From the NCBI RefSeq assembly GCF_030384885.1, contig NZ_CP128614.1: DNA of 64,000 nt; one strand, given 5' to 3'. The position numbers were made by a program. Positions 18,001 to 21,000 of this stretch are shown in pieces. Every line of letters begins with the position of its first letter. Within the stretch, counting starts at the first letter, position 1. The stretch is from Escherichia coli. GTDB lineage: Bacteria > Pseudomonadota > Gammaproteobacteria > Enterobacterales > Enterobacteriaceae.

Positions 18001-21000
18001 ATCTCCAGGATACAACATCCATCAGTGACCATCAGCACGACAGCGATGAACCGCTGAATGAGCACGATCCGTTACAGTTCCACTCGCACGGTAATGTGCA
18101 TCACCTCAATGCCGATCATTCCCACGATCTGAACAAACTCTTCACGCTGACTGCTTTGCAGGCCTGGAACGCAGGCATGCGGGCGACGTTCGCGCTAAGT
18201 TCAGAACAAATCCTGCGGGTCCCCCAGGCGACCCCCGAACGCCCTCCGAGATCCCTGATTGCGTAATAACTTCCGTTAATTCGTTATTATTCAATTTGTA
18301 AGGGTTTTTATGAATACCAGCCTCGATATACAGGGCCGGTTGAACGGTGGCCTGCTTTCAGCTCAGGCGCGTTCGGCTTGTCTGTTTTTCCTGTTGTTAC
18401 TGCTTTTCTACAGCCAGGGCGCGTATGCGCACGACGTGGCGGAGGGCGACAAAGGGTACATCCAGGAAATCACCGGGATTATCGTCAATGCACAAAGGAG
18501 CGTGGGTAACGCTGGAAGGTAATGTTATCAGCCAGCAGGATGAGTGGTACACCTTCCGTGATCCAACCGGCACCATCAAAGTGCGCATTCCTCAGAAGGT
18601 CTGGAACGGGCAGCACTTCGATGCTCAGGATTTGGTGCGGGTGAGTGGGCAGGTAATTCATGAGAATGGTGCTACGAGCCTTGATGTAGGTGTGATTAGC
18701 AAGCCCTGAATTCCATCAAAACAAGCGGTACTTATAATAACCTTCATCCCGAGCGTGATAGCGCATCACAACTTCGAGACTTTCTTCAAGGAATATATAC
18801 GTCTGGGCATAGGACTCTCCATTATGAGAGTCCAACTAATGAGGGCAATGTATCGATCTGAGTATGAGATTGCTTTGTGGACTAAGGCAGAAATGAGCCT
18901 TCTAAGGCTGATCCTTCTTCAAGATTTTGATGAGTTCGATTTGCTGTTGTTCAGACATGTTAGCGATCAGGCGAGCTAACTCTGCAGTCGTTTCGTTCTC
19001 GCAAAAGAAGTAGTTGATCGGTACCCCAAGTTCATCAGCCATACGCTTAAGAGTATCAATGTCAGGAGTATGTCTCCCCTTCTCGTAGTGGTTCATGCGG
19101 CCACTCGCTGAACTTGGTTCCATGCCAATTCGGATACCCAATTCTTTCTGAGTGATCCCGGCATACGTTCTGGCAGCCTTGAGCCTGTCAGGTATCGGAT
19201 TTGGGTGAGCCACGAAGTCATCATCATTGCCTTAGAGTACTTAGATTGTCTAAGTTTCGTTGGTTTCTGTATACTTAGCAATTCTAAGTTTACTGATTTG
19301 GAAGTTTTAACAATGAAGTCTGCAGTGAAGTTGCACCCTTATATTTATAATTTGTTGATAGAAAGAGATTTTGATGAGTTCGGTGCTATCCATCTCAGGG
19401 ACGCTTTGCTGAAGATTACAGATTCATATGCTGATGTAACTGAAGCCAGAAAATTCATCCGCCGACAACTTATCCGGCTGGAGGCATTGGGCTTCATTTT
19501 TAAAATTGAAAATAGCAGTGGGCGTCCGAAGATCCTGTACAAGAAAACGGAAAGCTTCTATTCAACGACTTTCATACCAAGAAAATTGCCAAGTAACTCG
19601 CGCCTGGCTGCTGTGCCCGAAAATGTGAAACTACACGTTTTGGATGTCGATCTGTTCTTAATGGACCTGACAAAAGAAAAAACTGTCCATGAGGCCAAAC
19701 TTGCCGTCATTCTGAGTGAAATTGAAGAGTACCAGTCTCTTATGGAGCGTTTTCCCAGTAGACGGAGCTGCTTTATTGAACTCCATCAGCACGCAAAAAA
19801 TCAGTCCGCCGCTTTGCTTGGCAGGGTTACTGCTTTATCGAAAGTGCTAGGTCAGCTTAGCGATGGGGATTGCGCATGCTGAGGGAGTGGCAGAAAGAAT
19901 GCTCTGAAGCAGCGCTAGAAAAATATCAATCTGGATCGCCGCACTTTCTATGTCTTGCCAGTCCTGGTGCAGGAAAAACCGTGATGGCTGCTGAAGTTGC
20001 CAGGAAAATGCTGGAGCTGAAACTAGTAGATCTCATCCTATGCTTTGCACCTTCATCTGTGGTGGTTGCATCCATTGAAAGTACTTTCTCCCATATTCTT
20101 CAAAGGAACTTTAATGGTGGTCTTGGTGCAGTAGGTGCTGCGTATACTTATCATAGCTTGATGTATTTCGATAAAAGCTTCTGGAAGTCTTTGCAGATGC
20201 ATCGGGTATTAGTTATTTTCGACGAAATCCATCATTGTTCTGGCGATTCGCTGGATAATGCTAATGTGTGGGGCGGGGAAATCCTTTCTCAAGTTCAGCA
20301 ATGTGCCAGTTACTCTTTGGCACTAACAGGGACTCCATGGCGAACTGATAGTACTCCTATAGTGCTCTCAAATTACACTGATCCGGATGGGGAGATCTGT
20401 TGTGACTATGTATATGGACTACATGAGGCTATTGTCGATGGTGTTTGTCGTAAACCTAAAATCGCCTTGATAAACAGCAATAATTTAGTATATTCATCAA
20501 AGGATAATGTTCAGTTTTTTGGTTCCATCACAGATTTCCTGAGTGAAACCGTTGCTTCGTATCAATCAATAATTTGGCATCCAGAAGCAATGAAGTATGT
20601 ACTAGAAGCTGGATGTAAAAAACTTAACGAAATACGCAAAGTTAATTCTGATGCGGGTGGTTTAGTTGTTGCTTCTTCAGTCGAGCATGCATATAAGCTA
20701 CTGAATATTTTGGAAAAAGAGTTTGACCAAACAGCGATAATTGTGACGTACCACGATCGAGATGCTTTGGCTAAGATTGGATATTATCGGCAATCAACTA
20801 CAGAATGGATTGTTAGCGTTGGTATGATTAGTGAGGGCACAGATATCCCCAGGCTACAGGTCTGCTGCCATTTGAGTTCTGTCAAAACAGAACTTTACTT
20901 CAGACAAGTATTGGGCAGGATATTACGGGTGAATCAGAGTGAAAATCAGGAAGCCTGGTTATTTACAATGGCTACAAATGAACTGACATTATTCTCAAAC

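Follow-up and report, generated by a model that had tools for sequence, protein, structure and literature searches.

The question raised by this locus is whether two overlapping open reading frames on the plus strand, one at 18310-18522 and the other (120 aa) at 18347-18709 in a different frame, are the halves of one YgiW-family gene broken by a frameshift. Both lie in a 64,000-nt stretch of Escherichia coli DNA from contig NZ_CP128614.1 (the window, to which all coordinates refer). A sequence-only reading had assigned a signal peptide to the first frame and an OB fold to the second, and had offered sequencing error, a pseudogene or a slippage-prone switch as explanations. Whilst the reading frames and their relative phase are confirmed, the two parts belong to two different genes that lie approximately 7 kb apart in intact clusters. 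Comparison with those clusters makes it highly probable (about 0.93) that the apparent frameshifted YgiW gene is the joint of a deletion of approximately 7 kb, fusing the start of hupE/ureJ out of frame to the end of nirD/ncrY. The features concerned are as follows.

12249-16846, minus strand: type II CBASS operon (patatin CapV, DncV-like synthase, E2/E1, JAB)
17203-17296, minus strand: 5' remnant of a hipA toxin gene, approximately 30 codons of homology, cut at the left edge of the island remnant
17297-17593, minus strand: hipB-like HTH antitoxin gene, 98 aa, apparently intact, now orphaned
17889-18266, plus strand: His-rich hypothetical gene, first of the extended nickel cluster, full length
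18310-18481, plus strand: 5' remnant of hupE/ureJ, the first 57 of 245 codons and 1 further nt, with start codon and signal peptide
18310-18522, plus strand: 70-aa chimeric reading frame, HupE residues 1-57 followed by 13 out-of-frame residues from nirD DNA, with stop codon TAA at 18520-18522
18480-18481, plus strand: probable deletion junction, 'TA' common to both parents (2-nt microhomology)
18482-18709, plus strand: 3' remnant of nirD/ncrY (YgiW family), 75 codons plus stop, approximately residues 70-146 of the 146-aa NirD of pEnt261
18737-18853, minus strand: left-end remnant of an IS3-family element, terminal sequence and the first approximately 28 orfA codons, itself frameshifted

The YgiW-family identity proposed for the 3' part is borne out by two profile matches. 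Pfam BOF (PF04076) matches residues 46-119 of the 120-aa frame (E = 5.8e-17; 62.1 bits against a cut-off of 25.8; profile positions 29-103 of 103), and NCBIfam NF033674 (NirD/YgiW/YdeI) scores 65.9 bits against a cut-off of 35 (profile positions 37-110 of 111); family membership is thus supported above both curated cut-offs, by a partial match only. The OB-fold part is 88% identical at the protein level to residues 69-146 of pEnt261 NirD, and it shares its final 36 residues unchanged with three intact NirD proteins (P0006, P0010 and P0012). Like the YgiW/YdeI/NirD (BOF, PF04076) periplasmic stress-tolerance proteins, the remnant retains the C-terminal 75 or so residues of the OB fold; unlike them, it has no native start, signal peptide or N-terminal region, the first 69 residues being gone, and the signal peptide encoded upstream is that of HupE and is out of frame. 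A complete gene of this family, i.e. one of approximately 130-146 aa with its own start and an in-frame signal peptide, is not found here. Genuine NirD proteins begin MQKQYF...IPALAAQGGFSAEK..., which is their own signal peptide and unrelated to HupE's (the E. coli YgiW row in our alignment of NirD N-termini serves as illustration only). In one tblastn alignment, at 67% identity, NirD reached as far back as residue 47 (window 18410); since nirD DNA homology starts at 18480, we read this extension as an alignment run-on into out-of-frame hupE DNA and not as homology. The evidence supports the description of the 3' part as YgiW/NirD-family OB-fold coding sequence that is dead, and the remnant would be promoterless, with neither an export signal nor a translation start of its own.

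The 5' part has a different origin. The first 57 residues of the 70-aa frame are identical at 51 positions (89%, E = 7e-27) to residues 1-57 of HupE/UreJ, after which the two diverge, and the DNA is 93.7% identical to pEnt261 as far as the junction. The conserved segment takes in HupE's own signal peptide (the N-terminus, ...ACLFFLLLLLFYSQGAYA/HD..., is signal-peptide-like as judged by eye) together with the mature N-terminal His-containing motif, and the final 13 codons are nirD DNA read in the hupE frame (IVNAQRSVGNAGR). No Pfam or NCBIfam family matches the 70-aa product. In the intact protein the HupE_UreJ_2 Pfam domain spans residues 62-213, so that the window resembles the HupE/UreJ (PF13795) nickel permease family in its first 57 residues, signal peptide included, but lacks the entire Pfam-defined membrane domain, which has been wholly deleted. 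The truncated hupE product would amount to a signal peptide and 30 residues, and neither it nor the nirD remnant is predicted to work.

Base-by-base three-way alignments against pEnt261, pCAV1947-173 and two further sequences with intact nirD (L013 and L016) place the change from one gene to the other precisely, with hupE homology extending up to 18481 and nirD homology beginning at 18480. The window corresponds to hupE through ...CACCGGGATTA (ending at 18481) and to nirD from TATCGTCAATGCAC... (18480 onwards), and the shared 'TA' is embedded in an imperfect match of 6 of 8 positions (TAACATCA / TATCGTCA). The hupE part lies in frame 1 and the nirD part in frame 2, with the breakpoint at 18481/18482. 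Relative to intact clusters, the DNA missing at the joint amounts to 7007 bp (pEnt261), 7005 bp (pCAV1947-173) or 9526 bp (L013, which has an additional chrBA insert). When 17800-19300 was compared by megablast with 72,556 plasmids, a single record covered the query in full (pMY490-mcr-9, NZ_CP053569, 99.2%); some 295 others matched only as far as window 18477-18487 or thereabouts, over annotations reading 'hypothetical protein | HupE/UreJ family protein', and a separate search with 18470-18780 returned genes annotated 'NirD/YgiW/YdeI family stress tolerance protein' that match from 18480 onwards. In relatives the two parental genes are collinear, whereas the window has one breakpoint and lacks the DNA between them, as expected of a deletion-derived fusion pseudogene.

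The complete plasmid pMY490-mcr-9, sequenced independently, has the same joint with the same AAA at 18494-18496, and so do two metagenome contigs, Ga0079104_1000491 (L005; 99.8-99.9% identical to the window) and OGRW01000012.1 (L007; 100% over 2044 nt), which measure 43 and 144 kb. These contigs account for two of the four loci returned by a 21-mer scan of metagenome contigs, and the other two (L004 and L006) lie in unrelated sequence that matches by chance. Recorded contigs that encode exactly the 70-aa chimera number 325, the product being named 'hypothetical protein [Enterobacteriaceae]', and close variants occur on 59 and 2 more; a 73-aa version of the nirD remnant, starting from the ATG at 18488, is on 396 contigs and is named in places 'nickel-resistant protein NcrY' or 'TIGR00156 family protein'. 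A 31-mer across the joint had no match in a genome-contig collection, but as that collection has one genome per species this negative is uninformative. Among E. coli complete genomes the joint was not found; 13 of them have matches to hupE or to ncrY, though not joined. Enterobacteriaceae assemblies commonly carry the allele, which is inherited stably, and its remnants already have entries in public protein databases.

These data bear directly on the explanations that centre on the AAA run. The case for a single YgiW-family gene split by a +1/-2 indel in that run rests on the overlapping out-of-frame reading frames and on the fact that a -1 or +2 change at AAA arithmetically joins them into one frame of 132-133 aa, of family-typical size, beginning with a signal peptide and ending in an OB fold. 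The arithmetic of the claimed repair therefore holds; its product does not, being a HupE(1-57)::NirD(70-146) chimera and not a native protein, since the N-terminal part, 89% identical to HupE/UreJ 1-57, does not align with real NirD and is unrelated to the N-termini of all four intact NirD proteins. On NF033674 the repaired model scores 69.0 bits, a gain of only 3 over the unrepaired 65.9, against 82.2 for intact NirD. Nor does the frame change at the run, as had been supposed: the DNA ceases to match hupE and continues as nirD at 18481, 13 nt upstream of the run, and AAA simply encodes Lys within an intact stretch of the nirD frame (TCG TCA ATG CAC AAA GGA GCG TGG in the window), 13 nt inside the nirD-derived part. 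Alignment with four intact nirD genes, which read CAC GAA AGG/GGG GCG/GCA there, reveals substitutions only and no indel at the run. The comparison of orthologous loci in related replicons that had been proposed thus displays hupE and nirD as separate genes, and no difference in A-run length. A frameshift pseudogene or phase-variable gene would have a homopolymer indel flanked on both sides by the same gene, and here the DNA to the left of 18481 is hupE. Mapping of the junction already refutes the one-gene reading, which we regard as untenable; the term pseudogene fits only in the loose sense that the 3' part is dead. An error of sequencing (a miscalled homopolymer) or of assembly (hupE brought up against nirD by chimerism or collapse) has no direct support, and is ruled out because the joint recurs, with identical AAA, in NZ_CP053569 and two metagenome contigs and because several sources contribute the 325 contigs with the joint-spanning 70-aa product, to which variants add 59 and 2; its probability is negligible. 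Similarly remote is a recoding event or phase switch, in which a +1 ribosomal shift near CAA-AGG, or variation in run length, would yield an exported fusion of the HupE signal peptide and the OB fold on demand. Relative to hupE, nirD is indeed read in the +1 frame, AGG is a rare Arg codon in enterobacteria, and the adjacent AAGGAG at 18495-18500 resembles a Shine-Dalgarno stimulator of the kind known from prfB and from tandem-AGG studies; the allele is, moreover, widespread. Against this, the site was made by an accidental deletion, two substitutions that intact nirD genes do not have gave rise to AAAGGAG, and re-pairing from CAA to AAA is poor, whilst hitch-hiking on successful plasmids accounts for the spread. 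As for slippage, only two homopolymer runs of at least 3 nt occur between the junction and the hupE-frame stop, both exactly 3 nt, a length far below those known to slip, and AAA is identical in all four carriers of the junction, which leaves the suggestion of a slippage-prone switch without foundation.

A more substantial alternative, which we nevertheless consider unlikely, is that two diverged copies of the cluster, carried for example on separate replicons or brought together in a cointegrate, recombined to form the joint, with no intramolecular deletion. In its favour the locus is a mosaic: relative to L013, which like L016 has an intact nirD within the same downstream backbone as the window, the hupE side is 88.5% identical, 18480-18602 differs at 20 of 123 positions (83.7% identity) and 18603-23863 at only 2 of 5261 (99.96%), and identity to pAP855-type plasmids is likewise unequal, at 93.9% for the left part and 83.6% for the right. 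The break in identity is sharp, however, and falls at approximately 18599-18602, 120 nt to the right of the joint; homologous exchange is impossible on a 2-nt overlap, and the order and orientation of the parts are those of a simple internal deletion. Because divergence is uniform across the block that contains the joint (88.5% identity on the left of it, 83.7% on the right), the comparison argues for a deletion within one cluster variant with the mosaic boundary as a separate event, although origin from a single molecule remains unproven. At least one homologous exchange, with a breakpoint near 18600, has therefore also shaped the locus. The intact clusters found reach at most 94% identity to the window's left part and so do not include the direct parent of the deletion, and the 90% clusters of the two remnant proteins yielded no single parent matching both sides of the joint: P0004 is an intact HupE from a differently shortened cluster (L010/L011; 86% DNA identity), and P0006 and P0012 are intact NirD proteins in the same backbone with a diverged left side. 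Inter-copy recombination and deletion would both result in the same dead fusion.

For the favoured deletion, the mechanism is probably illegitimate, microhomology-mediated recombination, as the overlap is just 2 nt and neither an IS nor a long repeat lies at the joint. An IS-mediated adjacent deletion was considered for the 18481 joint and rejected, IS sequence being absent there. One event of this type (microhomology-level, RecA-independent) would have removed approximately 7 kb, including the efflux genes and their repressor, and joined hupE codon 57/58 to about codon 70 of nirD; the ends would have met out of frame, producing the two reading frames now seen, i.e. the 70-aa truncated hupE frame and the nirD OB-fold remnant.

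What such a deletion would have taken out is apparent from four intact references (pAP855, pEnt261, pCAV1947-173 and Logan contig L013), in which hupE and nirD lie 7.0-9.5 kb apart in the same orientation. The intact order is the His-rich gene, hupE/ureJ (738 nt), four genes of unknown function, nirA/ncrA (MFS), nirB/ncrB (repressor), ncrC/rcnA (NicO) and nirD, which encodes 136-146 aa across these references. The nirABCD determinant, which PMC8545094 cites, was reportedly described from Klebsiella oxytoca CCUG 15788 by Park and colleagues in 2008. The related ncrABCY determinant was defined in Leptospirillum ferriphilum UBK03 (PMC3046157), and in Enterobacter ncrABC, which is necessary and sufficient for nickel resistance there and in E. 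coli K-12, sits in an unstable 9-kb region between transposon-related elements (PMC8545094); the nickel MICs set against each other in that study are 16 mM and 4 mM. The window shares with the extended enterobacterial ncrABCY/nirABCD cluster (hupE/ureJ upstream), as present in all four references, the His-rich gene, the start of hupE, the end of nirD, and the flanking hipBA (left) and IS3 (right). Order and orientation agree, and the shared DNA is 83-94% identical. In contrast, it lacks the 3' four-fifths of hupE, the four genes of unknown function, nirA/ncrA, nirB/ncrB, ncrC/rcnA and the first 69 or so codons of nirD. When all ten cluster proteins of pCAV1947-173 were searched by tblastn against the whole 64-kb window, only the His-rich protein, HupE 1-57 and the NirD C-terminus were recovered, and the other genes of the nickel cluster were absent; neither the NcrA/NirA exporter, nor the NcrB/NirB repressor, nor the NcrC/NirC NicO-type permease of the determinant is found. 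Because ncrA, ncrB and ncrC are absent, the locus can probably no longer specify nickel efflux. What remains derives by deletion from a plasmid nickel-resistance cluster that is known and well distributed; it is nothing new in kind.

It is very unlikely that the allele is anything other than neutral debris, i.e. that the promoter region, the His-rich gene and the 70-aa mini-frame have been retained for some remaining function. Were this so, a small exported or membrane peptide might be active alone, or a low-level +1 shift at CAA-AGG might supply a periplasmic fusion of the HupE signal peptide to the NirD OB fold, and occurrence on hundreds of assemblies would reflect selection. Of more practical consequence, resistome screens that count the NcrY remnant could wrongly score the plasmid lineage as nickel-resistant. 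The locus also illustrates that adjacent out-of-frame reading frames with complementary-looking domains need not be one frameshifted gene, and that slippage should be invoked only after comparison with intact loci.

The surroundings of the joint fit the same picture. Segment 17200-18895 is extra DNA relative to the K. oxytoca plasmid NZ_CP115680 (L008), to which backbone homology stops at 17199, and lies between the type II CBASS operon and a block of HTH, VspR-like and helicase genes. The intact island carries hipBA to the left of the His-rich gene and IS3 after nirD/ncrY, and traces of both ends persist: 17203-18487 aligns to positions 5401-6688 of pAP855 (L001), where hipA occupies 4166-5491 on the minus strand, and a 22-aa reading frame (17224-17292, MARRQQRLAAWMNNIQVG...) lies within the hipA remnant. 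The hipB-like gene matches NCBIfam HipB NF007271 with E = 1.2e-10, below the curated cut-off, and in L001, L010 and L011 hipB adjoins hipA. The His-rich gene, for which no Pfam family was found, is 93.6% identical by tblastn over residues 1-125 of 125 of its pCAV1947-173 orthologue. Segment 17200-18895 would thus be the decayed leftover of a mobile nickel-resistance island, and what is seen is ordinary decay of an accessory island adjoining a CBASS defence operon. The IS3 remnant is 78-81% identical to the 5' end of the IS3-family transposase gene found downstream of nirD in pCAV1947-173 and others; lying 250 nt downstream of the joint, it may account for other losses.

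Comparison of the window with L013 (Logan contig SRR13004548_1077), in which the plasmid ncr/nir nickel-resistance cluster is intact, gave 83.7% identity over 18480-18602 vs 99.96% over 18603-23863, identifying an abrupt mosaic breakpoint at approximately 18599-18602, within the nirD remnant. These identities indicate that variants of the cluster once underwent homologous exchange here. The remnant also contains a short CAG repeat (approximately 18530-18535) from which one codon is missing, in frame, so that QQ is encoded in the window vs QQQ in intact NirD proteins.

Other rearrangements are evident in relatives. 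The metagenome contig Ga0079104_1000491, which carries the same deletion joint as the window, lacks 948 bp (window 19819-20766; contig 4504-4509), falling within a ResIII/DEAD-like helicase gene (window 19870-21264), and is elsewhere 99.8-99.9% identical; this loss is a second, independent deletion in the region, in a sister lineage. In L013 a chrB/chrA (chromate resistance) insertion at 1686-3996 separates the anchor-protein gene of the intact cluster from the nickel-cluster gene that follows, and because of it the equivalent of the deleted interval measures 9.5 kb, vs 7.0 kb. Two ENA metagenome scaffolds (L010 and L011) have the order hipA, hipB, short ORF, intact hupE and 157-aa ORF, directly followed by partition genes of the sopB/parA type and a gene for Rep3 replication; the ncr genes are absent from the cluster in both, and this arrangement is another independent truncation of the same nickel cluster.

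Window features near the deletion joint (18481/18482):
12249-12719, minus strand: Cap3 (JAB), CBASS operon
12706-14475, minus strand: Cap2 (E2/ThiF), CBASS operon
14475-15776, minus strand: DncV-like cGAMP synthase, CBASS operon
15776-16846, minus strand: CapV, patatin-like phospholipase, CBASS operon
17297-17593, minus strand: intact hipB-like HTH antitoxin (98 aa), adjacent to the hipA remnant
18737-18853, minus strand: IS3-family element, degraded remnant of its left end
18902-19213, minus strand: HTH gene, neighbouring the 225-aa ORF
19205-19882, plus strand: 225-aa VspR-like ORF, adjoining the HTH gene

The IS3 remnant comprises terminal sequence and the first ~28 codons of orfA, frameshifted internally, with the greater part of the element absent; its identity to the IS3 copy located 3' of nirD in Klebsiella plasmids, pCAV1947-173 among them, is 78-81%. 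Within the hipA-hipB stretch (17203-17593, minus strand), the hipA toxin gene is cut to ~30 codons (ORF 17224-17292) and the hipB-like gene is intact, so that the decayed nickel-resistance island begins on its left side with an orphan antitoxin.

The type II CBASS operon (12249-16846, minus strand) is complete and lies directly to the left of the scar formed by the island remnant (17200-18895). In the K. oxytoca plasmid NZ_CP115680, which is without island DNA, the HTH, VspR-like and helicase genes directly abut this operon. Precomputed Pfam VspR_N/VspR_C matches exist for the orthologues of the 225-aa ORF in L013 and L016, a second contig with intact nirD; the window ORF itself gave no match in the Pfam copy searched here. 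In Vibrio, VspR represses the dncV island VSP-1, and a VspR-type identity for this ORF would fit its location beside CBASS.
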